64,000 bases of DNA, taken from the NCBI GenBank assembly GCA_965230895.1, contig OZ246394.1, positions 712,627-776,626 of the forward strand. Reading direction: 5' to 3'. This DNA is from an uncultured Gammaproteobacteria bacterium. GTDB taxonomy: Bacteria; Patescibacteriota; Microgenomatia; Levybacterales; UBA12049. Under the pieces are notes generated by a model. That model worked only from the letters and a program-made list of their open reading frames with translations. It made no database searches and had not been told where the DNA came from. Position numbers and translations under genes: made by a program. Of the stretch, positions 30,777 through 52,553 are shown piece after piece (position 1 is the stretch's first letter; each line of letters starts with the position of its first letter).

Positions 30777-30830
30777 AGTCTAGTAGTAATAAGTGTATCA
30801 AAGCAGAAACGTTACAGGAAGTCCTTGTAA

Positions 30831-31112
30831 TTATCGCTTAGCCAAAGGTAACGGAGCTGCCATATTAAGATGTGATTTAGCTGGAGCAAATCCCATGGAT
30901 TTAGCCTTGGCATTTATTGTCGTGAATGACGCTGCTTGAAGATACTGTTCTTTCAGCAATTCATTCTCCTTTTTTACTTCCTCAGCTTGATTCTGTAAAT
31001 CAACCAATGCAACACCAGTTGTGGAGATACTGTTTACAAAGTAAATACGGACTACTGACAGGACTACGACGATAAATCCTAGTCCTCCTAATAATAGTAT
31101 TGGTTTTTTCAT
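30831..31112 (-). CDS. ftsL: FtsL-like septum-formation protein (TM plus coiled coil)
   Basis: A 93 aa protein with an N-terminal TM helix and the coiled coil 'QAEEVKKENELLKEQYLQ'. It sits in the canonical position between rsmH and ftsI. Confidence 0.5.
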   Translation of the reverse strand: MKKPILLLGGLGFIVVVLSVVRIYFVNSISTTGVALVDLQNQAEEVKKENELLKEQYLQAASFTTINAKAKSMGFAPAKSHLNMAAPLPLAKR

Positions 31113-31996: not shown

Positions 31997-32007
31997 CCTG
32001 CCTTCTT

Positions 32008-37033: not shown

Positions 37034-39043
37034 TTAGAGATCAAGCTTCGTTTCTTTATCTGTTGTCAAATTAAATGTCTCTTCTGCCTTGCCGTTAATT
37101 GTTGTTGTGTATTCATGACCTGCTGTACCTGGCTGCTTTTGGATAAGCAATGGAAGTGGAGATCCTTTTTCAAGCTTAAATGGAAGCTTGTATTTCACTT
37201 CAAGTGAACCAACACCTTTTGGACGTACAGTTACAAAGCCTTCAATGACAGTCTTTCCAAGATCTTCTGAAGTTGTCATCTTAACCTGCGATCCCTTACT
37301 TTCAATTAACTCACTACCCTTTGGAACATAGATACGGATCCAATCTCGGTATTCAGCATTCAAACAAAGTCCACCACGCTCCAAATTACAATCAGATGGG
37401 GGGAATGGATTCTTATATTTAATCGTCAATGTCTTGGTAATATTACCGTCCTTATCGACTTCATAGGCATTGTCCACAGTTTCTTCCATAAAGATGTTTA
37501 CCTTTGCTCCTGAGAAATTAACTTCATTAATGTGGAGATAATCTCCTTCAAATGGTCTTATTTGGCCCGCAGCATTGAGAGCAACAATACCTTGCTGAGC
37601 TTGTTCGTCATACAAATTAAACATAATATGCTTTTGCTGTGTTTGCGCGATGATCGATTGGAAGAGTGGCCCCCAATATTGTTGTGGTGAAGATGAAAGT
37701 GCTTTTACCATGATTGCTGAAATCAAGTCTCCGATAATACTCTTTCGCTCTGTCTTAATATAATTAACTGGTCGAGAGATATCATTTTCAAGGACATAAA
37801 TTACTTGTGGGCAATCACATCGTGGATCAGTTTGTGTTGTAAATGTCTGTCCACCAGCTTGTACTTGATCATCAAGAATCTTAATTGTTGAGACAAGAAC
37901 GTGTGTATCGATAGCGATAATGCCATCAACATCTTCTTTTAATGCTGCTCTATCATACATTTCTTCAAAAGTCTTCATAGACTCTAGGAAGTCTGGAGAC
38001 AAATTGCTGTCACGTAAGTTTAATGTATATACCTTTGGAAGATACTTCAGTATCGGAGCTGGAGCTTTTGGCTTATTTGGAATTGAATCATCTAACTTAT
38101 AAATATCATCAGATTTTTCGAACTTAATAATACCCTTATCTATACTAAAGATAGCGTATGCAGTGATAAATCCACCAGTTGCACGAAGTTCTTTGTCATT
38201 CTGGAAGATAACAAGATATCGTTTAGCTTCCTGTTCACCGAGGAGTGAAGGTAACGTCTTAATAAGAGGCTTTGCATCACTCACTGCTGTTGCTGTTTGG
38301 TCTGCAGTGGTTTTGAGCATTGTCAATTGATCTTTGATCTTATTTCCAAAAATGATTTTTGGATAATGATTTGGGTCAACTTGATCAATTTCCTCTTGAA
38401 CCTTCACCAGTGAGGATTCTATCTTATCGATTTGCGGAGTAATTTTGCCCATACTGAGAACTGCGGTCTTAATTCGATCTTCAGTTGATCCCCCTGCGGA
38501 ACTATCATTTCCCTTTAAACCTAGTACGTCTGCATAAGGAGTTAATGAATCAGCAACCGTTTTTGCACTATCAAGTCCATGTTCACCAGCATTGAGCAAA
38601 TGCTCTGCGTCAGAATAGTACCAACCCACAATTGGAACAAATTTAAGTGGAACTAGGTAGCCAAGGTTTCGTTGCGTTTCTTTTAATGAAGCTTGTGTCT
38701 TTGTAATCTCTTGCGAAGCAAGCTCTACATTTTGTTTTTTGAGGGCGTTTTTAATAAGTTGTGCCTGTCGGTATGTCTTCAGACCGGATTGGTATGTCGC
38801 ATAAGCAGGGATACTAATGAGAACAACTAAGAGTGCGAAAATTCCCAAACCAATATAAAGCTTCTTTGAAACTTTAAATTTCTTTCCTCCTGAATTACCT
38901 TTTCTTCTCTTTGCCATTGGATCCTCCGTTACGCTTTTACTATTTGCGAAATCCTGCGGTGCCTTTCTCGGTACGTTTGTTGTTGTTTGGGTTGCAGAAG
39001 TTCGTTTTGGTTGTGCAAATTCTATTTTATCAAATCCAGCCAT
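37034..39043 (-). CDS. DUF4012-domain membrane-anchored extracytoplasmic protein
   Basis: A basic N-terminus is followed by one TM helix ('LYIGLGIFALLVVLISIPAYA') and a large exported domain containing 'RYLVIFQNDKELRATGGFITAYA'. I recall that signature as the DUF4012 family, which is frequent in CPR and Actinobacteria glycan loci. Confidence 0.5.
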   Translation of the reverse strand: MAGFDKIEFAQPKRTSATQTTTNVPRKAPQDFANSKSVTEDPMAKRRKGNSGGKKFKVSKKLYIGLGIFALLVVLISIPAYATYQSGLKTYRQAQLIKNALKKQNVELASQEITKTQASLKETQRNLGYLVPLKFVPIVGWYYSDAEHLLNAGEHGLDSAKTVADSLTPYADVLGLKGNDSSAGGSTEDRIKTAVLSMGKITPQIDKIESSLVKVQEEIDQVDPNHYPKIIFGNKIKDQLTMLKTTADQTATAVSDAKPLIKTLPSLLGEQEAKRYLVIFQNDKELRATGGFITAYAIFSIDKGIIKFEKSDDIYKLDDSIPNKPKAPAPILKYLPKVYTLNLRDSNLSPDFLESMKTFEEMYDRAALKEDVDGIIAIDTHVLVSTIKILDDQVQAGGQTFTTQTDPRCDCPQVIYVLENDISRPVNYIKTERKSIIGDLISAIMVKALSSSPQQYWGPLFQSIIAQTQQKHIMFNLYDEQAQQGIVALNAAGQIRPFEGDYLHINEVNFSGAKVNIFMEETVDNAYEVDKDGNITKTLTIKYKNPFPPSDCNLERGGLCLNAEYRDWIRIYVPKGSELIESKGSQVKMTTSEDLGKTVIEGFVTVRPKGVGSLEVKYKLPFKLEKGSPLPLLIQKQPGTAGHEYTTTINGKAEETFNLTTDKETKLDL

Positions 39044-39150: not shown

Positions 39151-39819
39151 TTAGGACGCACCTTTGCCAGATACCATCGCCCATGGAGTCTTAAGAATAA
39201 TATAGATATCAAGTAGAATTGACTTCTTTCTTGCGTAATCAGCATCCATTTGGATACGTTTATCAAACTTTAATTCGCTTCTTCCAGAAACCTGCCAAAA
39301 ACCTGTAATACCTGGTTTAACAGACAGCACTTCTTTTACAAGCTCTTTTGTTTGTGGGTATGCTTTCTGTTGTTTCTCAAGCTCTTCAGGATAATATGGA
39401 CGCGGCCCGACCAAACTCATCTCGCCTCTCAAAACATTAAAAAATTGTGGCACTTCATCGAGAGAATGTTTGCGTATAAACTTACCAACATGTGTAATAC
39501 GAGGATCATTTTTAATTTTATAATTTCCACCTTTTTGCTGTTCCTCATATGCTTTCTTGAACTTAGGATCAGTTTTTAATAAATAATATGCATTTACGAT
39601 CATTGAGCGGAACTTATACGGATAGAAAAATTTATTGTTTTTTCCAACTCTTCTCGGGGTATCAGCTAATATCGGCCCTTTTGATTCTAATTTGATGGCC
39701 AGAGCAACAATAATCATAATTGGAGAAAATAAAAGAAGGAGAAGGAGAGAAGAAATAATATCAATAGTTCTCTTTATAAATTCGTAGACCAAGCTTTGTG
39801 TGTGCTTTTTAGAAGACAT
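39151..39819 (-). CDS. Polyprenyl-phosphate sugar-1-phosphate transferase (bacterial sugar transferase, PglC/WbaP C-terminal type)
   Basis: An N-terminal TM helix is followed by the conserved C-terminal block '[14 protein letters not shown]...[28 protein letters not shown]'. Confidence 0.8.
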
Positions 39820-39821
39820 AG

Positions 39822-40907
39822 CTATGCCAGATGTTCGTAGTCAGTCCCACTAAGGTTTTGTACGAACTTCTTAATCTTAGGGACAGAGTCTTTTGGACAA
39901 ATCAAGATAACATCTTCCATACTTACGACGACAAGACCCTGTAAATCAATTCCTACAATAAGCTGCTTTGTTTCATTATGGATAATCGAATCCACACAGT
40001 CTTCAAGAAGAACTTTTCCTTTTGTTACATTTGCGTCAATCTCATCACTTAATGCTTCTTTCAGTGCTTCCCATGCACCAATATCACTCCAACCAATATC
40101 CGCTGAAATAACCATTCCAGCTTTTGGATCCATCTTTTCCAAAATAGCGTTATCAAATGAAATCTTCTCAAGCTTTGGATATACTTCTGCCAATACTTTT
40201 TCGTATTCATCAGTACCGTATGCATCTTGTATCTTCTTTAGATCCTTAAATAACTCAGGTGAAAATTCTTCAAATAACTTCCAAAGGAATCGTGGAGTTG
40301 TCGCGAAATAACCAAGATTCCAGGAATGTCGGTTATCTTTTGCCCATTCTTTTGCAGTTTCAAGCGCTGGTCTATATTGAAATCCTGTGAATTCATGAAT
40401 TGGAAATCCTTCAACATTTTCTGTTTCTTTTCCAAATTCAATATATCCAAGGTTTTGATTTGCAAATCGAGGCTTCTGACCGATGAACACAATCTTTTCA
40501 GGATCCTTCAAGACAAGTTTTTCTGCAACTCTAAGAATTTTCCTAAATTCAGCTTCTTTCTTAACAAGATGATCACTTCCCCAAAGAAGAACAATTGGCT
40601 CATCAGGATTTGTTTTAACAAATTGAGAAATTACCAAACCAACAGCAGGACCAACGTCTCGCATTTCAGGTTCAACAATAACATTCTTTTCAGGTAGTTC
40701 TGGCAATTGTTCGTGGATGTGATTTGCGTATTGTGTACCTGTGGAGATAAATACATCTTCCCAAGCAAACTCAGGGAATAATTTATGGACAGCTATTTGG
40801 AGCATGGATCGATCGGCAATGATTTTTCCAAACTGCTTTGGGGCATTTTTACGAGAAAGGGGCCATAATCTACTTCCGACTCCACCTGCAAAAAGAACTA
40901 TTTTCAT
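39822..40907 (-). CDS. manC: Mannose-1-phosphate guanylyltransferase (GDP-mannose pyrophosphorylase)
   Basis: 'MKIVLFAGGVGSRLWPLSRKNAPKQF' matches the ManC/CpsB N-terminus. A nucleotidyl transferase fold is present. Confidence 0.7.
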   Translation of the reverse strand: MKIVLFAGGVGSRLWPLSRKNAPKQFGKIIADRSMLQIAVHKLFPEFAWEDVFISTGTQYANHIHEQLPELPEKNVIVEPEMRDVGPAVGLVISQFVKTNPDEPIVLLWGSDHLVKKEAEFRKILRVAEKLVLKDPEKIVFIGQKPRFANQNLGYIEFGKETENVEGFPIHEFTGFQYRPALETAKEWAKDNRHSWNLGYFATTPRFLWKLFEEFSPELFKDLKKIQDAYGTDEYEKVLAEVYPKLEKISFDNAILEKMDPKAGMVISADIGWSDIGAWEALKEALSDEIDANVTKGKVLLEDCVDSIIHNETKQLIVGIDLQGLVVVSMEDVILICPKDSVPKIKKFVQNLSGTDYEHLA

Positions 40908-40930: not shown

Positions 40931-42013
40931 TTAAATTACTTTCTTAACAAGTCTAAGAAACTCCTCTTTAAATTTCTTTTCACTGAACCTTTCAGCATTC
41001 TTCCTTACAGTATTTGTATCAAATTTTATTTTAGTAAACTGTTCTAAAGTGTCTACAAGCGATTCAACTGTTTGTTGCTCAAAGAAAAGACCAGTTTTGC
41101 CATCGACCACGGTATCTAACGCACCACCTCTTCTCAGTGCAATCACTGGTTTTCCAAATGCCTGCGCTTCTACAACTACTAATCCAAAATCTTCAAATGC
41201 AGGAAAAATAAGAGCACGGCAATTCTTGTAATATTTGACGAGTTCTTTATCGCTAAGATTGCCCAAAAATTCTACTGTCGGACCTGCCATTGCTTCAAGT
41301 TCTTTTTTCCAACTTCCCTCTCCTATGACTTTCAACGGTAGCTTAAGCCTATTACATGCTTCGATTGCTATATCTACTCGCTTATACTTCGTAAATTTTG
41401 AAAGTCTTGAAACAACGAGAAAGTATCCTTTATTATTTTTGTTTAAAGATGCTTTTGTGGGAGATAGTGAAACTGGAGGATAGACGATAAGTGATTCTCG
41501 TTGATAATACTTTTTAATTCTTCCTTGTACTTCAGTTGAAATCGCTACGAGCATATCAGGACGTGCTGCCGCAGCTTTATCCCATTTTCTTAAGTACGAA
41601 ACGACGGGGTTTGCTGCGATACGTAATCCAGGATTTTTAAAATATTCCTCATAGCCGCTCCACAAATACCTTGTGGGCGTGAGGACATAACTAATATGCT
41701 TCGTTCCAGGTTTGGTAACAATACCTTTTGCAGCCTCACTTGTTACTGAAATAACTAAATCATACTTTTCAAAAGAGAAACGTTCAAATGCCATTGGCAT
41801 AAGAAACGGGTACATCTCGTGATTCTTGACGGCATGGGGATATTTTTGAAGAAAGGAGGTTTTGACATTGAAAACTTCTGCCCATTGAGCAGTTGTAGCA
41901 TTATAAACAGAGGTAAAGAGTGGAGCATTGGGAAAGATTTTATGTAAAGCGAGCAAGACACGCTCAGCACCTCCCCATTTATTTACTCTATCGTATACTA
42001 ATGCTACTTTCAT
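40931..42013 (-). CDS. Glycosyltransferase family 4 (GT-B)
   Basis: A C-terminal 'EDFGLVVVEAQAFGKPVIA' motif (E-x7-E box) and an N-terminal 'KVALVYD...GGAERV' fit GT4. Confidence 0.7.
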   Translation of the reverse strand: MKVALVYDRVNKWGGAERVLLALHKIFPNAPLFTSVYNATTAQWAEVFNVKTSFLQKYPHAVKNHEMYPFLMPMAFERFSFEKYDLVISVTSEAAKGIVTKPGTKHISYVLTPTRYLWSGYEEYFKNPGLRIAANPVVSYLRKWDKAAAARPDMLVAISTEVQGRIKKYYQRESLIVYPPVSLSPTKASLNKNNKGYFLVVSRLSKFTKYKRVDIAIEACNRLKLPLKVIGEGSWKKELEAMAGPTVEFLGNLSDKELVKYYKNCRALIFPAFEDFGLVVVEAQAFGKPVIALRRGGALDTVVDGKTGLFFEQQTVESLVDTLEQFTKIKFDTNTVRKNAERFSEKKFKEEFLRLVKKVI

Positions 42014-43127
42014 AAATTGCTAAAGTTTGTTCTGCCATAATTTTCCAAGAAAATTGTTTGGAGATCTTTAATCCTCTCTCTTGTAAAGCATCGAAAGATT
42101 CTTTCTCCGCAAGAACTTTTTGCATTGTATCATTCAATTGCTGTATATCAAGAGGATTAAAATAAATCGCTGCATCCTTATAAATCTCTTTAAAGACGGG
42201 AATCTCTGATGCAATAACTAAACATCCTTGCTGCATTGCTTCCAGTCCAGGTAATCCAAATCCTTCCATTAACGATGGGAGGACCAATGCTTGAGCGTTT
42301 TTATATAATGCACTTAGTTCTTCATCAGCGACTGCGCCTGTAAAGATTACACTGTTTTGAAGATTGAGAGATTGAGATTTTTGCTTTAGTCTTTCATAAA
42401 AGTAATTCATTTTTCCAACCATAACTAACTTTACCTCTGGGTTATCAGAAATGACTTTAGAGAAAGCTTCAAGAAGCCGTTCTCCATTTTTATGGGGATA
42501 CGCATTACCAACATAGAGAAAATATTTATCTGATTTGGATACATGGTATTTCTTTAAATCTTTATCATTTGCTTTAGAGATCTTTGCATCTACGCCTTCA
42601 TACGTGACGATTACCTTCTCTTTTGTTACAGGGAGATGATCAATAATTTCTTGTTTTGTGGCCTCTGAAACTGCGATAATTTTTTGTGCTTTCTTTGCTG
42701 TTTCTTTCAAGACAAACTTATATCCCAATCTTTTTACATGATATAAGGGTGATGGCAAGGTTGAGGCTTTTCCTGTAGGAAAATGGTTAATAATTAAATC
42801 ATGGATGGTAATCACATATGGTTGATTGTACAAAATCGGTATTGAGAAATAAGGGAAATGGACAAGATCAAGCGACTCATTCTCCAGAACTTTGTAAAAA
42901 AGTAGTTGCTCTTCAATAGAATGCCATCGGATATCAGTTTTGACCAATGTCCATTTACTCTCTTTTTCTTTGATGAAATCAAACAAGTCACTTTGAAAAG
43001 CTTCTGGAGTTACAAAAAGAACGTAATGATTTTTTTTGTCGATTTGGTGGAGATATGAGATAAGATTGCGGATGTAGCGTCCGACACCGGTTTCGTCCCA
43101 AAGCCTAGCATCAATACCTATTCTCAT
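41988..43127 (-). CDS. Glycosyltransferase family 4 (GT-B)
   Basis: 'MRIGIDARLWDETGVGRY' is the N-terminus. The C-terminal 'PSLMEGFGLPGLEAMQQGCLVIAS' motif is GT4-like. Confidence 0.7.
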   Translation of the reverse strand: MRIGIDARLWDETGVGRYIRNLISYLHQIDKKNHYVLFVTPEAFQSDLFDFIKEKESKWTLVKTDIRWHSIEEQLLFYKVLENESLDLVHFPYFSIPILYNQPYVITIHDLIINHFPTGKASTLPSPLYHVKRLGYKFVLKETAKKAQKIIAVSEATKQEIIDHLPVTKEKVIVTYEGVDAKISKANDKDLKKYHVSKSDKYFLYVGNAYPHKNGERLLEAFSKVISDNPEVKLVMVGKMNYFYERLKQKSQSLNLQNSVIFTGAVADEELSALYKNAQALVLPSLMEGFGLPGLEAMQQGCLVIASEIPVFKEIYKDAAIYFNPLDIQQLNDTMQKVLAEKESFDALQERGLKISKQFSWKIMAEQTLAIYESSISIR

Positions 43128-43153
43128 GAATAAAGTATACCATAGGAAGCTGG

Positions 43154-43405
43154 CTATCTTCTTCTCACTGGCGTGTTTGCAATTGAAGCAGCAGCACGAC
43201 GCCTTTGGCCTTCTGCTGAGACAATCGCGTGTCTATTAAGCGGAGGATGATTTCCTATATCATTTTTAAGTTTTCCTTCTGGCCCGAGGATTAATGCAAC
43301 TCCTTCTGCTAATTCAGCTGCATTACCAGTTTCCAAAAGAATTCTTGCTTTCTCATCAGTCGCGCCATCAATGCCCGAATAGTGAAATCTATTTGATTCC
43401 GTCAT
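43154..43405 (-). CDS. Hypothetical 83 aa protein with an Arg-rich C-terminus. Its local GC content looks higher than its surroundings.
   Basis: The ORF sits between two GT4 genes. It has no recognisable motif and may be spurious. Confidence 0.25.
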   Translation of the reverse strand: MTESNRFHYSGIDGATDEKARILLETGNAAELAEGVALILGPEGKLKNDIGNHPPLNRHAIVSAEGQRRRAAASIANTPVRRR

Positions 43406-43446
43406 AAGATCGCTATTCTAGCACGAAACGAGGACAATTTCAAAGG

Positions 43447-44640
43447 TTACTTACGAAGAACATTTGTATATGTGCTTTCTAAACCACGAGTTATATATTT
43501 CCATGTATAATTCTTTTCTATAAACGTTCGTCCTTTACCGCTAATTTTTTCATAAAGTTCTTTACTGTGAAGTACTTCATACGTTTTTTCTGCAAGTTGT
43601 TTAGCATCATTTCCTACTAATAATTCTTGTTCGTCTTCTGCATGGAGAGCATTGGCACTTAAAGACATTGTTATTACCGGTGTTCCGCAACTCATGGATT
43701 CAAGTATTTTATAGCTCGTTCCGCCTCCCACTCGAATTGGTGCAAGTAAAACAGCTGCTTCTTGAAAGATATCTGGAGTGGGTTTTGCTGACGTCGCTTC
43801 ATCAAATAAAACACGTGGATCATCAGTTAAATTCCGAATTGCATTGGGAATATTTCTTGCAACAAACCAAAGTTTTACATTATCTGAAACTTTATTCTTT
43901 AACAGTGGCCAAACATCTTGAATGATATATGCGGCGCTATCTCTATTTTGGATCCATTTGAAGTCTCCAATAAATAAGATCTTTTTCTCATCTTTCACTT
44001 TTTTCTGCAAGGGAATAAAGAAGAACTGATCTACATTAACACCATTGGCAGCGATATCTGCATTAAAACCAAATGTTTTAAGAATCGAGGCATCGTCTGA
44101 AGAAACCGTAACAACTTTTGAAGCGCGCTTCCATGATGACTCTTCTTCGCGTTTGATCTTCGCAATATCAATTCCCAGTAAGGGCTTAACAGGAAGAGGC
44201 GCCTGATTTTTAAATCGTTCATACACTTTATATTCGATATTATGCTCAATCAAAACAATTGGAATTTTGGTTTCTGGGACATTTTGCATAACATAAAATG
44301 TTTCAACATGAATCAAGTCAAACTGTTCATTCTGTAATAGCGTTTCAATTTTCTCACGCATTTCCGGAAGCTCATGACCAGTAGAAAGAAATGATTTTGA
44401 GGAAATTCCAGCTTTTGTAATATTTGATAAACTCCATTGTTTCTTTCGTGGCACAAGGATAACTTTTTTACAGATTTTTTCTACTTGCTTGATATCATTG
44501 TCTGTCTCCGTTGGACGACGTTCGCAGACCAGCGTAATTTCATGACGAGAAGAAAGCTCTTTAATAATATTATAGAGGCGTACTTGCCCACCAGAAAAAA
44601 GTGGATACGGTAAATATGAGGAAACAAGTAATATCTTCAT
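43447..44640 (-). CDS. Glycosyltransferase family 4 (GT-B)
   Basis: 'MKILLVSSYLPYPLFSGGQVRLYNI' is the N-terminus. The C-terminal 'GGGTSYKILESMSCGTPVIT' motif is GT4-like. Confidence 0.7.
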   Translation of the reverse strand: MKILLVSSYLPYPLFSGGQVRLYNIIKELSSRHEITLVCERRPTETDNDIKQVEKICKKVILVPRKKQWSLSNITKAGISSKSFLSTGHELPEMREKIETLLQNEQFDLIHVETFYVMQNVPETKIPIVLIEHNIEYKVYERFKNQAPLPVKPLLGIDIAKIKREEESSWKRASKVVTVSSDDASILKTFGFNADIAANGVNVDQFFFIPLQKKVKDEKKILFIGDFKWIQNRDSAAYIIQDVWPLLKNKVSDNVKLWFVARNIPNAIRNLTDDPRVLFDEATSAKPTPDIFQEAAVLLAPIRVGGGTSYKILESMSCGTPVITMSLSANALHAEDEQELLVGNDAKQLAEKTYEVLHSKELYEKISGKGRTFIEKNYTWKYITRGLESTYTNVLRK

Positions 44641-46100
44641 TATTTCTTATGTAAATCAAAAATTGCGTACTGTTCTGTAAAAGCAACTACTTTGTATTCT
44701 TCCTCCCATTGTTCTTTATCTTGCTGTGATGGATTAACCAGAACGAGATAATCTGCGCCTTTTTGGATAAGAATTGGCATTGGATCCTGGAAACTTGCCC
44801 AACCTCTTCGATCCATTTGGTAAAGCAATGAAGTATCTCCATTATAGTTTGCAACAATAAGAGCGTCTTTCGGCGTTAATTGTTGTACAGCTTTGCCAGC
44901 TGCAATAATTGAGCGGTTATTAATATTGAAGTATTCTTTTATAATGTTCCAACTCATATAAAAGCTTCCGATAATGAGCAGGACAACGAGAATTTTCCCA
45001 ATAGGAAATTTTTTGAAACTCCATTTCATTAAGAAATAACTTCCAATTGCCATAAATATTGCAACCGCTGGAATCGTTGGTATTTGATAATAATCATGTT
45101 GGACATTTCCTGTTGCTACAATAGAAACATATAATACTGGACCAATAAGAAATGATAAAAAGAATTTCCATTCTTTAAGAAGTTTTATACGCAATGCACC
45201 AAACCCCAAGAGTACTATCCCAAAATATCCGCTTATCAAAACTGTCAGTCGCTCATAAAATATCCATCTAAAAAATGCCGGTCGAAAACGAATACCATTT
45301 CCGTTCAATAACCATATGTTGGCAGGGATTCCTTCAGGGAATTGGGATATCCATGTCCTCCAAGCCAAAAGCGGTGCTACGGAAAGAATTGCGTATAGCC
45401 AAAGATGCCATTGTAGAAAGGTTTTCCAGCCAAAATGCTTAAATGCCAAATATATAATTGGAATTATGAAGAAAATTGCATGAGGCTTTAAGAGAAAGGC
45501 TACTGCTGTAAAAAATAAAGCTAATACAAAATTATTTATGATCTTCCTCTTCTCATGTTTTTGCTTAGTGAGTTCTTGAATCCATGTATCAAAGAAATAT
45601 ATACCTCCTAAGTACGCCATTACCATCGTCATATCAGGAAGAATTGTTCTCCCATAATAGATATTGAATGGGATGAACATATAAAAGAATGTACTTAGTA
45701 ACCCGAGTTCTTTATTGCTATGTCTCGAAACCAGAAGGTAAAGAAAAATACCAGCGCCAAGAGAGGCTGTTATACTAATAAGTCTTCCCCATTGCTCAAT
45801 TGTGAAGAAGCCAAAAATCATGAAGAGGCTTGCCTGAAGCGCATTATAAATTGGGAATTCAACAAAGAAGTATCCATTGGGATTATCCATTCCGGATTGG
45901 ACATTGGAGATATTAACCATCTTAGGGTAAAGCATGTTGATACCTTCATTGGCAAAAATCCTTGAAACGGAGGCGGTTTCTGATTGTCTCCAACTATGCC
46001 AATCAGCAATGGAATTATCAAAACCATAAAGTCGGACGATAAACCCACCAAAAAGAATACAAGCAAGAATAAGCAGTGTGTGGTTCCTCAAAAATTTCAT
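44640..46100 (-). CDS. Polytopic membrane glycosyltransferase, GT-C fold-like (ArnT/PMT/COG1807-like)
   Basis: A 486 aa protein with about 11 TM helices. The first extracytoplasmic loop carries the acidic/aromatic motif 'FDNSIADWHSWRQSE', typical of GT-C enzymes that use polyprenyl-P-sugars. The stop overlaps the start of the upstream GT4. Confidence 0.45.
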   Translation of the reverse strand: MKFLRNHTLLILACILFGGFIVRLYGFDNSIADWHSWRQSETASVSRIFANEGINMLYPKMVNISNVQSGMDNPNGYFFVEFPIYNALQASLFMIFGFFTIEQWGRLISITASLGAGIFLYLLVSRHSNKELGLLSTFFYMFIPFNIYYGRTILPDMTMVMAYLGGIYFFDTWIQELTKQKHEKRKIINNFVLALFFTAVAFLLKPHAIFFIIPIIYLAFKHFGWKTFLQWHLWLYAILSVAPLLAWRTWISQFPEGIPANIWLLNGNGIRFRPAFFRWIFYERLTVLISGYFGIVLLGFGALRIKLLKEWKFFLSFLIGPVLYVSIVATGNVQHDYYQIPTIPAVAIFMAIGSYFLMKWSFKKFPIGKILVVLLIIGSFYMSWNIIKEYFNINNRSIIAAGKAVQQLTPKDALIVANYNGDTSLLYQMDRRGWASFQDPMPILIQKGADYLVLVNPSQQDKEQWEEEYKVVAFTEQYAIFDLHKK

Positions 46101-49100
46101 TTCACTTCAGAAATTGTACCATTTCTGTATTGGAAGATGTATGTCTTTGTAGGATTTGCTAACTTCGCAGACTTTGCCTGTTCCAGAGAGTTGGTCTGAA
46201 CAACTTTTGGTGTATTCTCTCTATAAATAAACCATAAGCCATCTGATAATCCTACAGGGAATAACCAAACACCTTCATACTTTGCTGGAACATCGACAAA
46301 ATAAACTGTGTCATTTGGAGTAAAGCTCGCATAACCAGTTCTAAAGGTTAGAAGCATACTCTGAGCAATCGCTCCTGACTGGGACCATTTAAGCTGTTCT
46401 GTTTGATTTTGATTAAAGTGCAGAAATGAAATACACCCAAAGACCACTAATAAGACAGATACAAATATAGTTTTTTGTCGAATAATCTGTTTTATAAGAG
46501 CATAAACAAGAACGACAAATGCGAGACTCAAACCAAATGATGCAAGGTATTCATATCGTGGAGAAATATTTCCTAAAGGTAAGAACGGAAGCAAACTAAC
46601 AAACGCAAATACAATTCCAAATATCACAAGCTGTGCATTATCATGTTTTACAAACTTAAGAACTTGCTTCTTAGAACGATAGAACATGTAACTTAATCCG
46701 CCAATAATAACGATTCCTGCAACGCTTAATACTAACCACATTGAGCGAAGGTTTCCACGGATTCCATCATATGCAGCAATAAATGAAGTTCCGCTTAGGA
46801 ATAAACCGATATATCCAAGGAAGTTACCAATAACATTTGGAACTACCTTAGCTAAGTTGTAACTGTAATCACCGCCTCCCGAGAAAGCTCCAGAAACGGA
46901 TCTCATTACAAAATAGAGTATGACCAGGATGATAAATGGTAGATATGTTTGGATAAACTTAAATGAACGCTTTGGTTTGTAAATAAAGATATCTAAGACA
47001 ACAAATATAAGTGGGATGATCACTGAAATTTCATAAGAAACAAAAGCCAAAGCACTTAAAATAACTGCTGCAATATATGCAACAATAGATTTCTTCATTC
47101 TGAAATAGTGATAACAAATCATTGCATACAAGATAAACATTGAGGCAAGTCCAATAGAAAGGGTTGAGAACCAGAACATGTTTTCAGTGTGTACGGGTAG
47201 CAATGCGAAAGTTGCTGCGGTTAAAAATCCTATCAATCGTGACTTTGCATAACGGCTTCCCAAGATATAGACAGCAATTGTTGTTAGGAAGTGTACCAGC
47301 AAGAGGAAGACATGGTAGCCTTCTGGATTGAATGAGAAAAGCATATATAAGAAATACACAATTACTTTATCCAGAGGTCGGTAGAAAAAGTCTTGAGCAT
47401 TTACAAAATACATTGCCAAATCAGATGGAGCCGCAGTTGCTGCCCAACGAAGCCAGGTGAAGTCATCAGCTACAAAGAAGTTTTTAATCGATGCTGCATA
47501 TCCGACTAGTATAATGATCATAAGGTACAGTACAAGCATGATTGGTGATGTAAAGAAAGATTTCAATGAAGATTTATAATCAATTGGTTTCTTCAAAAAG
47601 AGTTTTGCTGCCCCAACGCCAATACCTGTTAATATCCAGAATGGCTCTGCAACTTTTGAAGCTTCGAAAACATCAATAAGTACTGCATTAATGAGCAAGC
47701 CAATCGTTCCACCAGCAAGACCAAACACAAGCGCTTTAACGATAGGATCTTTTATCTCTTTCACACTATGCTTCATGAAAATCCCAAAGATAACGAAAAT
47801 AAATAAGAAGGCCAATAATCCAACCAAGCCCGTCTCCCCTAACGCTCTTAAGTAATCATTATCTGTTGCTAGCGTCAGTGAAGAATATCCTGTCCCAAAG
47901 ATTGGACTAAAGAGGAACGCATTCCAGTTTCTTGGCCACTCTGCCTGGAAACGTGTTGTAAATGAAATATCAAGTGCATAGGCTTTTTTAATAAGAAAGC
48001 TTCCTGAGACAGAAGAGATTGCAATCTCACCACTTTGGATTTTTCGCAATTGCTCTTCAGTCAAAACAGCAGTGTAACCACTATCTGTTGGAGGCTTATT
48101 CGCACCCACAGTAAAGTCGCTTGCAGGAGGGATCTCAGCATTTTTTTGCTCTTCTGCTGTTTTTGCATCCTTAATAATTTTTTGCAAATCAGAAGGTAAG
48201 GCTTCATCGGTAGAAACGACCTGAACTTCTTGAATAGTATTGGAAAACCTCTGGATTGTCGCATTACCAAAAAGCATCATGACTCCAACACTTACTACCA
48301 TAATTGGAATGATCCATTTTTTCTTCTGCCAAAGGACAAGCATTCCAACAACTCCTATTACATATGCACCAAACGACGTTCGTGAAGAGGTAAAGTTGAG
48401 TACTTCCAATGAAAGAAGCGCAAGGAGAATAATAGCTATACGCAAGGACCAACGCTTAACCGCAAATGCGAGAGCAATAAGGACAGGTATAACCATGACC
48501 ATATATGCTGATAAATCATAATGTCCGCCAAATGTAGAACTCACTCTAGATAATTCATTGAGGCATAAGGGTGTACCTTTAGCAAATTCTTCGTTACCTG
48601 TGAGGAATGCTGGGAAACAGAAAGGATATGTTTGGAAGAAATCAGGAAAAAGCTTCCATAGAATCGTATAAAACCTCTGCCCAAATCCATAAAAAACAAT
48701 TCCAAATATAGTAATACAGAGAGTTATGAGATAGAAATAAACATCTTTTACGTTTTTAACTGATGAGAAGGCGATAAAAAAGAGAATCATATACTCTATT
48801 CGCCGGAAATACTGCAACCAGGCAACACTTGGGAAGAAGTTAGCGAGGGTTGGCGCTATAAAAGTAAGACAATAGATTAAAGAAGCTAATCCTGCAATCC
48901 AATAAAGAAGTAGTGCATAACCTTCAGGTCGAGGAAGAGAAACCTTTCTTCGAACAAGCTGCACAAACCAAATAAGTGCTAGTGCAAGAATAACAAAGTC
49001 TTCTAGACGAATATAAACCCATGTATTATCAATATTTATACTTGGAAGTTTTGGATAGAGTGCAGTAAAAAGGATCGCAAATGCGACTCCAAAACGGAGG

Positions 49101-49135
49101 ATATTATTATCAATAAGTTGCAATAATTTCTTCAT
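46097..49135 (-). CDS. 1012 aa fusion membrane protein. The N-terminal half is an O-antigen ligase/polymerase-like (Wzy_C) domain. The C-terminal half is a second polytopic GT-C-like domain.
   Basis: Residues ~1-470 form about 10 TM helices plus a large loop ending in 'IFGTGYSS...ATDNDYLRALGETGLVGLLAF', which resembles the WaaL/Wzy_C signature (HN.YL..L.E.G..G). Residues ~520-1012 form a second ~11 TM bundle with the loop motif 'FVADDFTWLRWAA...YRPLD', a DD motif typical of GT-C. Confidence 0.5.
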   Translation of the reverse strand: MKKLLQLIDNNILRFGVAFAILFTALYPKLPSINIDNTWVYIRLEDFVILALALIWFVQLVRRKVSLPRPEGYALLLYWIAGLASLIYCLTFIAPTLANFFPSVAWLQYFRRIEYMILFFIAFSSVKNVKDVYFYLITLCITIFGIVFYGFGQRFYTILWKLFPDFFQTYPFCFPAFLTGNEEFAKGTPLCLNELSRVSSTFGGHYDLSAYMVMVIPVLIALAFAVKRWSLRIAIILLALLSLEVLNFTSSRTSFGAYVIGVVGMLVLWQKKKWIIPIMVVSVGVMMLFGNATIQRFSNTIQEVQVVSTDEALPSDLQKIIKDAKTAEEQKNAEIPPASDFTVGANKPPTDSGYTAVLTEEQLRKIQSGEIAISSVSGSFLIKKAYALDISFTTRFQAEWPRNWNAFLFSPIFGTGYSSLTLATDNDYLRALGETGLVGLLAFLFIFVIFGIFMKHSVKEIKDPIVKALVFGLAGGTIGLLINAVLIDVFEASKVAEPFWILTGIGVGAAKLFLKKPIDYKSSLKSFFTSPIMLVLYLMIIILVGYAASIKNFFVADDFTWLRWAATAAPSDLAMYFVNAQDFFYRPLDKVIVYFLYMLFSFNPEGYHVFLLLVHFLTTIAVYILGSRYAKSRLIGFLTAATFALLPVHTENMFWFSTLSIGLASMFILYAMICYHYFRMKKSIVAYIAAVILSALAFVSYEISVIIPLIFVVLDIFIYKPKRSFKFIQTYLPFIILVILYFVMRSVSGAFSGGGDYSYNLAKVVPNVIGNFLGYIGLFLSGTSFIAAYDGIRGNLRSMWLVLSVAGIVIIGGLSYMFYRSKKQVLKFVKHDNAQLVIFGIVFAFVSLLPFLPLGNISPRYEYLASFGLSLAFVVLVYALIKQIIRQKTIFVSVLLVVFGCISFLHFNQNQTEQLKWSQSGAIAQSMLLTFRTGYASFTPNDTVYFVDVPAKYEGVWLFPVGLSDGLWFIYRENTPKVVQTNSLEQAKSAKLANPTKTYIFQYRNGTISEVK

Positions 49136-49183: not shown

Positions 49184-49777
49184 TTAGCGAAACCACGCAG
49201 CACGTCCTAACTTATAATGCAGATCCTTTGATTTGCGCTCTCCTATCACCTTTGCAGGGATACCACCAACTATAGCATATGGCTCAACAGATTTGGTTAC
49301 GACAGCACCAGCACCGACAACACTACCTTTACCCAAAGTTACTCCAGGAAGAATAATTGCCCGTGGGCCGATAAACACGTAATCATCAATCACAACACAT
49401 TCAGAAATAGCATGGAAATCATCGCTATGGATATCGTGTTGGCTATTGTAGATCATAACTTCTGAAGCAATATCTACATGATCACCAATAACAAGCTTCT
49501 CACGTCCATCCAAAACAGCAAATTCACCGATAATTGTATCTTTACCGATAACAATATTGGCAGGATTATAAAACCGAGCACCTACATGAAGTGTTGATCC
49601 ATCACGAATAGTCATACCTGCAAGTCGATAAAAGAATCTTCGAATATGATGGGACGGTAGATGCCCAACGACATGAAGCACCCAAACGACGAATTCACGA
49701 AAAACGGTATTGGATCTATTCTGCGCCTTCCGTTTAAAGTCTTTTGAAAACATATTTCTATTTAAACTATTTGCCAT
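49184..49777 (-). CDS. Hexapeptide-repeat (LbH) O-acetyltransferase, paralog of the gene at 452..991. The likely start is the internal ATG at MANSLNR, which avoids overlap with the upstream GT4.
   Basis: 'IVIGKDTIIGEFAVLDG' and 'IILPGVTLGKGSVVGAGAVVTKSVEPYAIVGGIPAKVI' align block-for-block with the 452..991 product. Confidence 0.7.
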   Translation of the reverse strand: MANSLNRNMFSKDFKRKAQNRSNTVFREFVVWVLHVVGHLPSHHIRRFFYRLAGMTIRDGSTLHVGARFYNPANIVIGKDTIIGEFAVLDGREKLVIGDHVDIASEVMIYNSQHDIHSDDFHAISECVVIDDYVFIGPRAIILPGVTLGKGSVVGAGAVVTKSVEPYAIVGGIPAKVIGERKSKDLHYKLGRAAWFR

Positions 49778-49778
49778 A

Positions 49779-50927
49779 TTATTTTGCTGCAACGTCGACA
49801 AGTACTTTGAGTGTCTCCTTTGCTGTTTTTTCCCAATTAAACTTCGTTGCCTGTTTTTTTCCTTTTTCACTCAGCTCTTTTCGCAGATTTTTATCATTTA
49901 CTACTTTCACGAGCTTATCTGAGATATCAGAGACATCTTCAGGATCTATATAAACTGCAGCATCTCCTCCTGCTTCCGGCATACTACTTACATTGCTTGT
50001 AATAACTGGCGTGCCCTGCTTCATGGCTTCAACTACAGGCAAACCAAAGCCTTCATAAAGGCTTGGTAAGACATAACAAAGAGTATGTTTATACAGCATA
50101 TGCAATTCGTCATCATTGATACCTTCAAGAAATGCAACTTTATTTTCAACTCCAAACTTCCTTGGTGCATTAAGTATATCTTCATACAACCAGCCTTTCT
50201 TCCCAACAACAACGAGCTGTAAATCTCTGTATGCTTCATCTAATTTTTTGCTTTCCAATGCTTGTGCAAATGCTTCTATAAGGCGGGAAATATTTTTTCG
50301 AGGCTGCAAAGTACCCACAAATAAAACGTAGTTATTACTGAGGTTATATTTAGCTTTTAACTCGTTCATAGCATAAACATGAGGCTGAAGTGAAACAGAT
50401 TGTTTTATCCCAGGATAAATTGTTTTGACCTTTCCCTCAGGTACTTTGTACGTTTTAATTATATCATTTCTACTTGAGTTACTTATAGTCAATACGACCT
50501 TTGCCTTCTCCACAGAATACTTCGTCCAATTACGAAGTTGATACATATCAGCCTTATTAAATAACTCTGGAAAGCGCAAATATGCTAGATCCATTATAGA
50601 AACTACTGTCGGAATAGGCGAAAAACGTGGAGCATAATGGGTTGGGCTAAAGAAAACATCTGGTTTTGACTTACTCAAAAATAAATTAAGGGGCAAACCA
50701 AATTGTGTCCAAAACTTTCCAGGACCGACAATTTTATATTGCCAATTTACGTTTTCCTTTGGAAGTGTCTTTAAAGGTGGTTGTTTAAGATAAATAACAA
50801 ATTTTACCTCAAGTGATTTATTCGATTCAGCAAATTTTGCAAAATAATATAATAACCAATAAGCGTACTCACTTATTCCTACCCTTTTTGTAACATTGGC
50901 TTCATTGCCATCGATTCCAATAATCAT
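49779..50927 (-). CDS. Glycosyltransferase family 4 (GT-B)
   Basis: 'MIIGIDGNEAN' is the N-terminus. The C-terminal 'PSLYEGFGLPVVEAMKQGTPVITS' motif is GT4-like. Confidence 0.7.
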   Translation of the reverse strand: MIIGIDGNEANVTKRVGISEYAYWLLYYFAKFAESNKSLEVKFVIYLKQPPLKTLPKENVNWQYKIVGPGKFWTQFGLPLNLFLSKSKPDVFFSPTHYAPRFSPIPTVVSIMDLAYLRFPELFNKADMYQLRNWTKYSVEKAKVVLTISNSSRNDIIKTYKVPEGKVKTIYPGIKQSVSLQPHVYAMNELKAKYNLSNNYVLFVGTLQPRKNISRLIEAFAQALESKKLDEAYRDLQLVVVGKKGWLYEDILNAPRKFGVENKVAFLEGINDDELHMLYKHTLCYVLPSLYEGFGLPVVEAMKQGTPVITSNVSSMPEAGGDAAVYIDPEDVSDISDKLVKVVNDKNLRKELSEKGKKQATKFNWEKTAKETLKVLVDVAAK

Positions 50928-50929
50928 AA

Positions 50930-51472
50930 TTAATTCCCCGGATATGTAACGTGCAAACGATTTTCTTCAATTCCTAATATATTCATTGCATCTTTCTTGG
51001 TTGCTTCAGAAATACAAAGGATCGCATCGGATTCTTTCTTCACCCAAGCAAGTTTTCTTTTTTGTGTTGCTATAATTTTTTTATCAGTTTCTTCAGGAAA
51101 CTTATAAATAATTAAATCATATAAAATAGTAATTTTTTTCGCTTTTTTAACTGGAGGTTCTGTCCAGTCAGAAGTAATAAAAACATCTACATCTCCTATT
51201 AGATTTTCGATTGGCATGATATGCAATTTATTCCAGAGCATGTCTAATAAGGTTGGTGGAAATTTAAAAGATTTAACGTGTACATTTGAAGATTGAGGCA
51301 AATTCAAATTTGGGACTTTTCCACGTAAACTCGAAAAGAACAAAACATATTCATTTTTATTATCTTGAAGGAGCAATTGCGTAAGTGTCTGTTTAAGATA
51401 ATTTGCCACACCAGTACGACTGTAGGCCATTTGTGAGATATCAATTCCAATCTTCATAGGAGTTCCTAGCAA
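50930..51472 (-). pseudogene. Truncated GT4 glycosyltransferase comprising the N-terminal Rossmann domain only (180 aa). Probable gene remnant or pseudogene.
   Basis: 'MKIGIDISQMAYSRTGVANY...LCISEATKKD...HVTYPGN*' is the donor-less N-terminal half of a GT4. It stops right after the interdomain 'YPG' motif, and the next full-length GT4 starts 3 nt downstream. Confidence 0.4.
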
Positions 51473-51510: not shown

Positions 51511-51723
51511 TTATGATTTTTTCAGATGTAAAAGTATAATCCCTAAAAGGATAAATCCAGCAGCATACATAACTAACCTCTCCGCTGTAAAAAATATCTG
51601 TAATTGAAAAAGCGGTATTGATAAACAAAAAGAGATTACTCCTACAACAATAGCCCACTTTGGATTTCTTCTCCAAATCAGAGCAATGATAACAATTATA
51701 AATAGAATATCTTGTGGTTTCAT
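51511..51723 (-). CDS. Small two-TM membrane protein
   Basis: A 70 aa protein with two hydrophobic helices. Confidence 0.3.
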   Translation of the reverse strand: MKPQDILFIIVIIALIWRRNPKWAIVVGVISFCLSIPLFQLQIFFTAERLVMYAAGFILLGIILLHLKKS

Positions 51724-52553
51724 TTTTTCTTAATAAAAATAATAATTATTATTATCAAAATTGAAAAGATAATACTCGTTATTACTCCTCTATCAACCCA
51801 TTCTTGTGGAGTATATTGAACAGTGAATGTATAGGTTCCATCTTGTGGCAAGATAAAACTGTTTAATCGGTTGTATTGTTTGCTTGAAATACTATCTGAG
51901 CCGACTTTCGCTGCCCACTTCGCATCATATCCTTCAGAAAATATAAGCTGGTCTCCTTTGCGCGCATTCTTTACGTATACCTCATAATGTACAGGAGACA
52001 CATAAGTATATGTTACTTCAAGATTTTTACTTGTTGTCCAGAAGTGATCTTTAGGATTATTGAGTTCATAAACAACTATCTTCCCATACGTTTTTACCCT
52101 CTTTAACCATTTGATCCTGTCAATAGTTGCTACTACTGAGAGATATTGTTTCTCATCATATTGCCTGTCAGTGTTGAAGATCTGCTTTTCAGAATCAAAT
52201 GGAACAATAACATATTTAACACTTGCTTCACTGAGGAATTTTTCGGTATCCTTTCTTTCTAAGTATTTAAGAACTGCATCTTGATTAGGAGCATTAAATA
52301 ATTCTTGTGCAGAGATAGAACGATGCTTCTCAGACATATAGACGTAATGTGGCGATGCTGGAATCCATAAAACCCGGTAAAATGCATTTTGTCTTGAGAG
52401 AAAATCTTTAAGCTCGACGTATTCGTTTGGCAATTGAGAATTTCTAAGTGTTCCAGTAAACTCTCCGGTAAAAGCAGGTTTTAATAGGAATACAAAATAC
52501 AGAAAGACTCCCAACAAAAACAGCCATGGCAAAAGTTTATTTAGTATTTTCAT
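51720..52553 (-). CDS. C-terminal (periplasmic domain plus C-terminal TM) part of a split member of the large membrane-protein family (see 56013..58184)
   Basis: 'KIVVYELNNP...EVTYTYVSPVHYEVYVKNARKGDQLIFSEGYDAKWAAKVG...SKQYNRLNSFILPQDG' aligns with 'ISDKNAEITYEKVSPARYTVDVKH...QIIFDNPYSEKWEMYLG' of 56013..58184 and with the C-terminus of 58181..60328. Confidence 0.5.
   Translation of the reverse strand: MKILNKLLPWLFLLGVFLYFVFLLKPAFTGEFTGTLRNSQLPNEYVELKDFLSRQNAFYRVLWIPASPHYVYMSEKHRSISAQELFNAPNQDAVLKYLERKDTEKFLSEASVKYVIVPFDSEKQIFNTDRQYDEKQYLSVVATIDRIKWLKRVKTYGKIVVYELNNPKDHFWTTSKNLEVTYTYVSPVHYEVYVKNARKGDQLIFSEGYDAKWAAKVGSDSISSKQYNRLNSFILPQDGTYTFTVQYTPQEWVDRGVITSIIFSILIIIIIIFIKKK

Follow-up and report, generated by a model that had tools for sequence, protein, structure and literature searches.

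A conserved Microgenomates fusion of a Wzy_C-family domain with a GT-C-A domain in a surface-glycan operon

Does this locus truly encode, in a single polypeptide, an O-antigen-ligase- or polymerase-like domain joined to a second GT-C-like membrane domain, as a first-pass annotation had proposed, and if so, which reactions might such a protein couple? Among the enzymes that assemble bacterial surface glycans, Wzy-type polymerases and WaaL-type ligases belong to the least understood, including in the way their acceptors are selected and positioned, and the cell envelopes of Microgenomates (CPR), which depend on surface contacts with hosts, are almost uncharacterised.

A single reading frame within a conserved surface-glycan operon

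In the window, i.e. the whole 64,000-nt stretch of DNA analysed, a single ORF at 46097..49135 starts with ATG and encodes 1012 aa followed by a TGA stop. It agrees in position and length with the ORF of the first-pass annotation, which had left the strand unstated, and lies on the minus strand, as do all features of the fusion gene and its operon given below. The identical 1012 aa ORF was present in four independent assemblies (Logan SRR14271359, SRR14271360 and SRR14271365, and a 1.61 Mb NCBI contig), and the fusion formed one uninterrupted ORF in 78 of the 80 fetched related loci, refuting the merger by sequencing error, at a frameshift or assembly join in the linker, against which that annotation had cautioned. 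More than 118 full-length fusion homologues (identity down to 44%) were retrieved, and full-length homologues with 30-84% identity occurred in at least 111 species-representative genomes of Microgenomates/Patescibacteria, with the linker region alignable throughout the family. What the ORF encodes is a genuine and conserved fusion: two complete GT-C-type domains, one of the Wzy_C family (GT-C-B, WaaL fold) and one of GT-C-A type (PMT_2/ArnT/STT3 fold), both strongly constrained, with a short linker rich in Lys between them (aa 512-530, LFLKKPIDYKSSLKSFFTS; 47546..47602) that is predicted to be cytoplasmic.

The fusion gene lies within, and is translationally coupled with, a conserved surface-glycan operon comprising an initiating phosphoglycosyl transferase, several GT4 enzymes, sugar-nucleotide enzymes and a second GT-C of the PMT_2 type. 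The latter, a stand-alone gene of 486 aa (44640..46100), directly follows the fusion in 76/80 related loci, its ATG overlapping the fusion's TGA (ATGA); the C half as a tandem or recent duplicate of this neighbour was considered and rejected (E 0.2). Upstream are a hexapeptide-repeat acyltransferase (49184..49870; 189-197 aa according to the gene callers; conserved in 71/80 loci) and a 382 aa GT4 preceded by a separate 180 aa ORF with the GT4 N-terminal domain only (49779..51472; conserved in 77/80 and 64/80 loci). Further downstream, three GT4 glycosyltransferase genes (40931..44640; conserved in 61-77 of 80 loci) are followed by the ManC-like NTP-transferase and the initiating phosphoglycosyl transferase (Bac_transf; 39151..40907) and, as last gene of the operon, by a DUF4012 protein (37034..39043), whose family is enriched in CPR and Gram-positive bacteria and has been linked to an EPS cluster (PMC6744442).

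The window also holds a dcw murein cluster and a GT2 gene (60297-61370) with two C-terminal hydrophobic segments and TarS-type enzymes as best PDB matches. LPS genes were absent from the window, and no Wzx, GtrA, SMR or MATE flippase, no LCP ligase and no Wzz/PCP co-polymerase, a frequent partner of inverting Wzy-type polymerases, were recognised there. CPR bacteria are reported to lack Gram-negative envelope features (PMC6744442), and the names of homologues and loci identify the host as a Levybacteria-like CPR bacterium.

Two membrane domains and their conserved motifs

The N half (aa 1-511; 47603..49135) forms a 12-helix WaaL/Wzy-like (GT-C-B) domain, as judged from Pfam, AF2 helices, a fold match to WaaL (7tpg/7tpj) and conservation, with 20% invariant alignment columns versus 9% in the C half. 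Wzy_C (PF04932) matched aa 238-444 (47804..48424) over profile positions 2-149 of 149 with 40.7 bits, so that the initial domain call cleared the gathering cutoff of 31.7 bits; all 36 tested homologues matched the model as well. With 12 transmembrane helices, a long extracytoplasmic loop and a GT-C-B fold, the N half has the layout of WaaL-type enzymes, and it showed neither the 10-helix fold nor the FTSW_RODA_SPOVE profile match of SEDS proteins (FtsW/RodA, GT119). The family profile retrieved no match at E<=10 among all PDB chains, solved WaaL included, and the relationship to solved enzymes was therefore taken from fold comparison. Aligning the family with E. coli WaaL by hhalign gave a single aligned region at very low probability; an HMM built for the N half yielded two local matches, a clear one (R252 to R215) and a weak one. 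In NCBIfam, the fusion had no match and stand-alone relatives had sub-threshold matches only.

An Arg/Arg/carboxylate triad is kept in every member of this family, stand-alone forms included. Invariant R252 (codon 48380..48382; motif FTSSR) is the equivalent of E. coli WaaL R215 and the first proposed Und-PP-binding arginine; the second, invariant R395 (codon 47951..47953; motif TTRFQAEWP), is the putative counterpart, at motif level, of WaaL R288 (GARLAMYE). In ligases, conserved arginines bind the Und-PP phosphates (CmWaaL R191 and R265; EcWaaL R215 and R288; PMC10920833). The carboxylate, D425 (codon 47861..47863), stands where O-antigen ligases have their catalytic His, was invariant in 36/36 homologues and is likewise Asp in stand-alone N-half homologues. 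It falls within the loop-end motif quoted at first reading, ATDNDYLRALGETGLVGLLAF, which is present at aa 423-443. In the N-half family HMM, T435-GLVG aligned with K348-GLMG, and ungapped extension places D425 on H338 and N426 on N339 (ATD425NDYLRALGETGLVG versus HLH338NEIIEAGSLKGLMG in E. coli WaaL), bearing out the earlier remark that the usual His is replaced. The large extracytoplasmic loop includes a variable, low-confidence stretch (aa 291-385; 47981..48265; pLDDT <50) with 4% invariant columns.

The C half (aa 531-1012; 46100..47545) is a PMT_2/ArnT/STT3-type GT-C-A domain, and the motifs first noticed in it, VADDFTW and YRPLD, are present at aa 555-561 and 585-589. Its GT-C-like character holds, specifically as GT-C-A, by structure, the predicted model matching solved GT-C-A enzymes over the membrane core, and by way of relatives that score with PMT_2, but not by a Pfam match of its own: the window protein gave no match to PMT_2 (PF13231, cutoff 26.1 bits) at E<=1 and reached no GT-C Pfam model. 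Such models were reached by only 5/36 family members (PMT_2 by one, E 4.7e-9; PTPS_related by four), and stand-alone relatives found with the C half passed PMT_2 at 27.0-43.2 bits. Since the C half stays below a threshold that its relatives exceed, we regard it as a divergent relative rather than a member by the model's threshold. As in GT-C-A enzymes, an acidic motif is found in the first extracytoplasmic loop, where invariant D557-D558 (codons 47462..47467; motif FFVADDFTW) lie six residues past helix 531-551. The DD was retained in 80/83 aligned C-half sequences, and in the window protein both it and the other polar C-half motifs are intact. The motif set as a whole (FFVADDFTW, FFYRPLDK, GGGDYSYN, LPFLPLGN..RYxYL and WxFPVGLxDGLWFIYR) is undescribed. 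Its last member belongs to a small C-terminal alpha/beta domain (aa 935-1012; 46100..46333), whose side of the membrane is an assumption, the parity of the helix count being ambiguous past helix 7.

Possible activities of the fused domains

A conserved Asp or Glu at the ligase-His position is reported for SEDS and inverting Wzy polymerase families of clan GT-C1, whereas characterised ligases and O-OTases have a catalytic His (CmWaaL H313, EcWaaL H338, PglS H324; PMC10920833). The His replacement is neither an oddity nor a defect and, because a carboxylate there is on record for SEDS and inverting Wzy enzymes, it tilts the N half towards polymerase-type chemistry. D425, R252 and R395 together present the GT-C1 pattern of an Asp/Glu at the His position with one or two conserved arginines; of the GT121 pattern, the two arginines are present, the second by inference, and the catalytic His is absent.

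The reading we favour, and to which we lend about even credence, is that of a bifunctional integral-membrane glycosyltransferase that would polymerise or ligate an Und-PP-linked glycan and add a polyprenyl-P-linked sugar, the N half acting as a Wzy/SEDS-like inverting polymerase and ligation being the main alternative. In a monoderm CPR bacterium (Levybacteria/Microgenomates), the protein would act on the outside of the cytoplasmic membrane, in late steps of the conserved operon-encoded surface-glycan pathway. Its N half would bind an undecaprenyl-diphosphate-linked oligosaccharide via R252 and R395, and the D425 carboxylate would activate an acceptor hydroxyl, the glycan being moved en bloc. 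The PMT/ArnT-type C half, with DD557/558 in its first outer loop, may transfer a single sugar from a polyprenyl-monophosphate donor to the same glycan or its acceptor; mannose is plausible as this sugar because the operon has a ManC-like gene. Fusion would impose 1:1 stoichiometry and proximity, bringing polymerisation or transfer and decoration or priming together on one substrate.

Ligation in place of polymerisation is less probable, though a serious contender. Here the N half would be a ligase or O-oligosaccharyltransferase (WaaL, PglL, WsfB type) that transfers a finished Und-PP oligosaccharide en bloc onto an acceptor, be it a pilin, an S-layer protein, a lipid or a wall polymer, which the C half and/or the neighbouring PMT_2 enzyme had first primed (e.g. 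with O-mannose). Such logic fits the bimodular ligase WadA, in which the appended glycosyltransferase makes the ligase's acceptor site. It sits less well with the invariant Asp, a state reported for polymerases, where known ligases and O-OTases have their His (WaaL H313/H338, PglS H324), and with the lack of a known acceptor protein or sequon.

The bifunctional reading can be extended, rather doubtfully, to the core of an unrecognised Microgenomates-wide assembly machine for a surface glycopolymer or glycoprotein, in which both transferases would share one composite extracytoplasmic cleft and hand the growing glycan from site to site (polymerise and decorate, or prime and ligate). If true, these would be the first two lipid-linked-donor GT-C enzymes acting as one obligate unit, and a natural stable complex for cryo-EM capture of Wzy/WaaL-type acceptor engagement.

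We consider it improbable that one half only is catalytic and the other a retained but inactive GT-C scaffold, serving to position or stabilise either its active partner or the PMT_2 enzyme encoded next to it. L082, and probably L087, still encode within a 1061 aa protein a fused C half without the DD, GGGDYSYN and LPFLPLGN..RYxYL motifs, i.e. this half, the less conserved of the two, can persist without catalytic motifs. However, genomes with a degenerate fused C half also carry an intact stand-alone copy next door, which argues that cells normally rely on the fused domain for this activity, and an idle half is at odds with the near-universal DD and intact polar motifs of the C half as well as with the N-half triad, kept even in stand-alone forms.

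Separate halves, a search for which had been suggested at the outset, do occur: some related genomes have two adjacent, overlapping genes in the same operon (L084, L085, L090, L093 and L094, with the break point in the linker), lending support to the proposed functional coupling of the two activities. Split-type operons have an additional GT2 directly upstream. L081 (P0139), at first sight a further split form, was left out of the split count, because there the fusion gene carries an in-frame TAG in place of the Glu491 codon. In L084 the genes part at an A6 run, where a frameshift could explain the break, so that L085, L090, L093 and L094 are the loci taken as evidence of true splits. These separate genes and the in-frame stop of L081 are also what could be cited for an artefact in which a frameshift, a missing stop codon or a join made in assembly had merged two neighbouring genes at the linker, a reading refuted, with practically no probability left to it, by the four assemblies, the full-length homologues, the uninterrupted loci and the family-wide alignable linker described above.

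Relation to known systems

Literature searches for a fusion of Wzy_C with GT-C or PMT_2, for an O-antigen ligase in Patescibacteria and for a ligase-ArnT fusion found nothing relevant, and no publication on such an architecture emerged, in agreement with the initial impression that no Wzy_C::GT-C fusion had been described. Since public databases already hold the family by the hundred, labelled 'O-antigen ligase family protein' or 'hypothetical protein', it is undescribed rather than unseen; the former name is misleading in these organisms, which presumably make no LPS, and the His that defines a ligase is missing. Both enzyme types are known, and their combination in one chain is moderately novel without amounting to a new kind of system. 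The natural single-chain coupling of a Wzy/WaaL-type enzyme to a PMT/ArnT-type GT-C makes a genetic case as to which activities have to operate jointly, strengthened by evolution having sampled three states: split, fused, and fused with a dead domain that is backed by a replacement copy. The protein also serves as a marker of a glycan operon that is conserved in Microgenomates (CPR), and it may suit structural work as a well-behaved target.

Compared with WaaL (GT121; Wzy_C; 7TPG/7TPJ) and PglL/PglS, which have a catalytic His, the fusion has an invariant Asp, a loop with a variable disordered insert of ~95 residues and an extra GT-C domain, its host group presumably has neither an outer membrane nor a lipid A-core acceptor, and profile searches gave it no detectable sequence match to solved WaaL. 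With inverting Wzy and SEDS enzymes (clan GT-C1, PMC10920833) it shares the carboxylate at the ligase-His position and one or two conserved arginines proposed for diphosphate binding; their donor is an Und-PP-linked glycan, as proposed for the N half of the fusion, and the fusion family is highly conserved, as are families with fixed donor and acceptor (cf. Wzy/SEDS). The C half resembles PMT_2/ArnT/protein O-mannosyltransferase GT-C-A enzymes (PF13231; GT39/GT83) and, more remotely, STT3/PglB/AglB, with the window protein below GT-C Pfam thresholds. As in three-component systems (GtrA/GtrB/Gtr*, ArnC/ArnT, CsbB/YfhO), a GT-C encoded in a glycan cluster would add single polyprenyl-phosphate-donated sugars after export; unlike there, it shares a polypeptide with a polymerase/ligase-like enzyme and is not a separate accessory protein. 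Of the cognate components, the window offers the GT2 described above, with its two C-terminal hydrophobic segments, as a candidate synthase, and no recognised flippase. The sole bimodular ligase mentioned in a CAZy-oriented survey of these families is WadA (GT121 plus soluble GT25), interpreted as 'coupled action' (PMC10920833). Like WadA of Brucella and Mesorhizobium, the fusion covalently ties a ligase-type GT-C-B domain to a second glycosyltransferase of the same pathway. WadA's partner, however, is a soluble, nucleotide-sugar-dependent GT-A-type domain that acts in the cytoplasm on the LPS core, whereas the partner in the fusion is a second polytopic, lipid-linked-donor GT-C, presumably working at the same outer membrane face.

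The fusion gene and its distribution

The fusion is encoded by a single ORF in the window (46097..49135, minus strand), which starts with ATG and specifies 1012 aa; position and length agree with the first-pass annotation, which had not given the strand. The motifs quoted there were all located in the protein, with ATDNDYLRALGETGLVGLLAF at aa 423-443, VADDFTW at aa 555-561 and YRPLD at aa 585-589. That annotation had proposed a Wzy_C domain fused to a second GT-C-like membrane domain, an idea to be dropped if the N-terminal domain fell short of the Wzy_C threshold or if two adjacent genes had been merged in error. Regarding the former, Pfam matched the whole Wzy_C profile (PF04932) to aa 238-444 at 40.7 bits, above the gathering cutoff of 31.7 bits, and this ground for rejection thus falls away. 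Regarding the latter, three independent Logan assemblies from different runs (SRR14271359, SRR14271360 and SRR14271365) and a 1.61 Mb NCBI contig each encode the identical 1012 aa protein. A homology search with the fusion returned 1560 significant matches; among the best 120, 118 span 99-100% of the query (1007-1082 aa, with identity from 100% down to 44%). In a scan of one genome per GTDB species, 111 species encode a relative, and in the 80 best loci query residues 1 to about 1010 were matched at 30-84% identity, as one uninterrupted ORF in all but two (78/80). The 1012 aa fusion is genuine and not a merge artefact.

Public databases contain many members of the fusion family, with names that say little or mislead: where a name is given among the best 120 matches, it is either 'O-antigen ligase family protein' (Candidatus Levybacteria/Levyibacteriota, Patescibacteria) or 'hypothetical protein'. 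The 80 best loci come from Levyibacteriota, Gottesmanbacteria, Shapirobacteria, 'Microgenomates' and unclassified Patescibacteria MAGs. Many TPA MAGs carrying the Microgenomates-type operon (related loci L001, L008, L009 and others) are titled 'uncultured Gammaproteobacteria bacterium', and the Levyibacteriota/Patescibacteria names of close relatives suggest these titles to be placeholders or misassignments.

The window has a G+C content of 37% and holds a complete-looking dcw cluster (14737-32436, minus strand) that encodes MraZ, a PBP transpeptidase, two Mur ligases, a MurA-like EPSP-synthase-fold enzyme, MraY, FtsW, an alpha/beta hydrolase, MurG and FtsA, from which it follows that the organism produces peptidoglycan. 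At most about 5 kb separates the cluster from the glycan operon.

Conserved residues of the two halves

The N half (aa 1-511) is the more conserved of the two, with 102 of its 511 columns invariant across 36 homologues and the invariant residues concentrated in outer loops. They include the motifs LYPK...WVYxRxED, NEEFAKG, STFGGxYDL and TxSR252, followed by TTR395FxxEWP, GxGYS, D425NDYLR430ALGE434xG and NAxLID488VFE491ASK494. Both profile comparison and an N-half HMM aligned R252 to R215 of E. coli WaaL, a residue which, together with R288 and H338, we take from the WaaL mutagenesis literature to be essential. The segment around H338 lines up with the fusion free of gaps (H338-N-E-I-I-E-A-G-S-L-K-G-L-M-G against D425-N-D-Y-L-R-A-L-G-E-T-G-L-V-G), placing an aspartate at the position of the ligase histidine. 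Drawn from weak alignments, these equivalences to WaaL catalytic residues are tentative. In SEDS polymerases, an essential Asp occupies the alignment position of the ligase His (PMC10920833), and the O-oligosaccharyltransferase PglS is likewise His-dependent (H324; PMC12800693). On these grounds, the invariant Asp425 is best read as a putative polymerase/SEDS-type catalytic carboxylate rather than a defect.

The C half (aa 531-1012) has the fold of GT-C-A enzymes and is related to PMT_2 but divergent from it: it falls below the PMT_2 threshold in Pfam and has no match of its own in Pfam or NCBIfam. Its DD pair is kept in 80 of 83 aligned C-half sequences, and its topology is ambiguous after helix 7. 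The predicted model of the fusion has a pTM of 0.77, which only suggests a defined arrangement.

Operon context and split or degenerate relatives

The fusion gene belongs to a long co-directional operon on the minus strand. In transcription order, this opens with genes for a fragment of a UDP-GlcNAc 2-epimerase, for a GNAT acetyltransferase and for a DegT aminotransferase. A GT2 whose C-terminal part has two hydrophobic segments comes next, then a pair of polytopic paralogues (715 and 723 aa), one GT4, three membrane or secreted proteins that lack annotation, an ORF with the GT4 N domain only, another GT4 and the hexapeptide acyltransferase. The operon then reaches the fusion, a PMT_2 GT-C and three GT4 genes before closing with a ManC-like nucleotidyltransferase, an initiating Bac_transf phosphoglycosyl transferase and DUF4012. 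The fusion TGA and the ATG of the PMT_2 gene (44640..46100, minus strand) overlap as ATGA. PMT_2 accompanies the fusion in 76 of the 80 related loci and the hexapeptide transferase does so in 71; the GT4 genes on either side are kept in 61-77, and the order GT4 - hexapeptide transferase - fusion - PMT_2 - GT4 recurs in 49. DUF4012 is enriched in CPR and Gram-positive bacteria and occurs in one Bifidobacterium EPS cluster, and CPR bacteria are without marks of a Gram-negative envelope (PMC6744442).

Several other genes of the operon stand out. The adjacent polytopic paralogues of 723 and 715 aa (56013-58184 and 58181-60328, minus strand) are 40% identical (E 1e-170) and share the N-terminal motif MPD(V/I)D(A/T)DGGLWYQW. 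Neither has a Pfam family or a PDB sequence match; one shows a faint match to PTPS_related of the GT-C clan (E 0.09), and the pair may likewise represent GT-C-like enzymes not yet described. A 407 aa polytopic protein and the overlapping 277 aa protein that follows it (52537-53760 and 51720-52553, minus strand), each kept in about 30 of the 80 loci, together look like a split relative of these large paralogues, residues 174-218 of the 277 aa protein resembling residues 583-627 of the 723 aa protein (42% identity, E 8e-7). A 180 aa ORF (50930-51472, minus strand), located immediately upstream of a full-length GT4, comprises only the Glyco_transf_4 N-terminal half of the GT-B fold; since this short ORF (176-189 aa) recurs in 64 of the 80 loci, and also in L082 and L084, it seems to be a conserved stand-alone half-glycosyltransferase. 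Finally, the otherwise tight, overlapping operon is interrupted by an intergenic gap of ~320 nt (43128-43446), whose sole ORF (43154-43405) encodes 83 aa of unusual Ala/Arg/Gly-rich composition.

The two halves do exist as separate genes, a point that the first-pass annotation had marked for checking. In related operons, N- and C-half homologues measure 535 and 467 aa and lie 12 nt apart (L090), 531 and 470 aa with a 1 nt overlap (L093), or 524 and 457 aa with an ATGA overlap (L094), in the order hexapeptide transferase - GT2 - N-half homologue - C-half homologue - PMT_2 - GT4. The stand-alone N-half proteins share 35-38% identity with fusion aa 1-507 (E 1e-76 to 1e-85), stop just past helix 12 and retain all motifs, among them AAVDSSYxRALGEVG, which has an Asp where ligases have the His. 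A rough neighbour-joining tree of the C half, which is only indicative, places these three forms outside the fusion clade and nests the split forms L084 and L085 as well as two 'extra' stand-alone paralogues within it. The L084 junction sits on an A6 run, where a frameshift is possible; in L085 the linker is extended and the two genes overlap by 11 nt.

L081 was rejected as a split form: it is a fusion in which an in-frame TAG (2985-2993) takes the place of the Glu491 codon, invariant elsewhere (NAVLIDVF*ASKVA), and gene callers restart at a Met eight codons on. The stop may reflect a nonsense mutation, an error of sequencing or recent pseudogene formation.

Locus L082 encodes a 1061 aa fusion (2984-6169) with a degenerate C half, in which FFTLRDFNI stands in place of FFVADDFTW and neither the GGGDYSYN nor the LPFLPLGN..RYxYL motif is left; a GT2 follows and then, just before PMT_2, an intact 503 aa stand-alone C-half paralogue (7001-8512). 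L087-L089 look the same. C-half function in L082-type loci looks to have been replaced and the dead domain retained. Taken together, the split, fused and degenerate variants argue that the two activities belong together, that GT-C activity is required, and that a structural role of the fused C-half domain is possible as well.

An extra GT2 (278-318 aa) accompanies the Wzy_C-like and GT-C genes in all split-type operons (L084, L085, L090, L093 and L094), directly upstream of the N-half homologue, and also in the L082 and L087 type; the window operon has no GT2 at the corresponding position. This extra GT2 may be the enzyme that makes polyprenyl-phosphate sugar for the GT-C enzymes.

Proposed mechanism and comparison with known systems

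One chain thus holds two intact, constrained GT-C-type domains in a conserved architecture, and its gene shares an operon with those for a set of cytoplasmic enzymes in the Wzx/Wzy style. The side on which the linker lies is consistent with outward-facing first outer loops in both halves. We propose that the Bac_transf and GT4 enzymes would assemble an Und-PP-linked oligosaccharide, the diphosphate of which, after export, would be held by the N half via R252 and R395. D425 would then activate an acceptor hydroxyl for en bloc transfer, and the PMT/ArnT-like C half would add one sugar to this glycan or its acceptor from a polyprenyl-monophosphate donor; the ManC-like gene makes mannose a possibility for that sugar.

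For the N half, we favour a predicted role in polymerisation, because a carboxylate replaces the ligase His, because no second Wzy candidate was recognised in the operon, and because it shows the kind of conservation seen in families whose donor and acceptor are fixed. In the main rival reading, the N half might be a ligase or O-oligosaccharyltransferase and the PMT-like half would prime its acceptor, in analogy to WadA (PMC10920833) and to three-component GT-C systems. This rival is plausible, since Wzy_C spans both activities, since a ligase is the sole good structural match, and since the window showed no recognisable chain-length regulator, flippase or LCP ligase.

Our literature search found no paper on a Wzy_C::GT-C-A fusion. 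Mechanistically, the fusion would not surprise a specialist, but its clean and conserved coupling of two membrane enzymes that are poorly understood, in a bacterial radiation that has been little studied, is informative about evolution. The N half belongs to Wzy_C in Pfam; compared with the O-antigen ligase family, it has the fold and the conserved Args and lacks one defining feature, the His, and it shares the carboxylate with the polymerase/SEDS group. The sole bimodular ligase discussed in a survey of the family is WadA (PMC10920833), whose partner domain is a soluble GT25, whereas that of the fusion is a GT-C-A domain.
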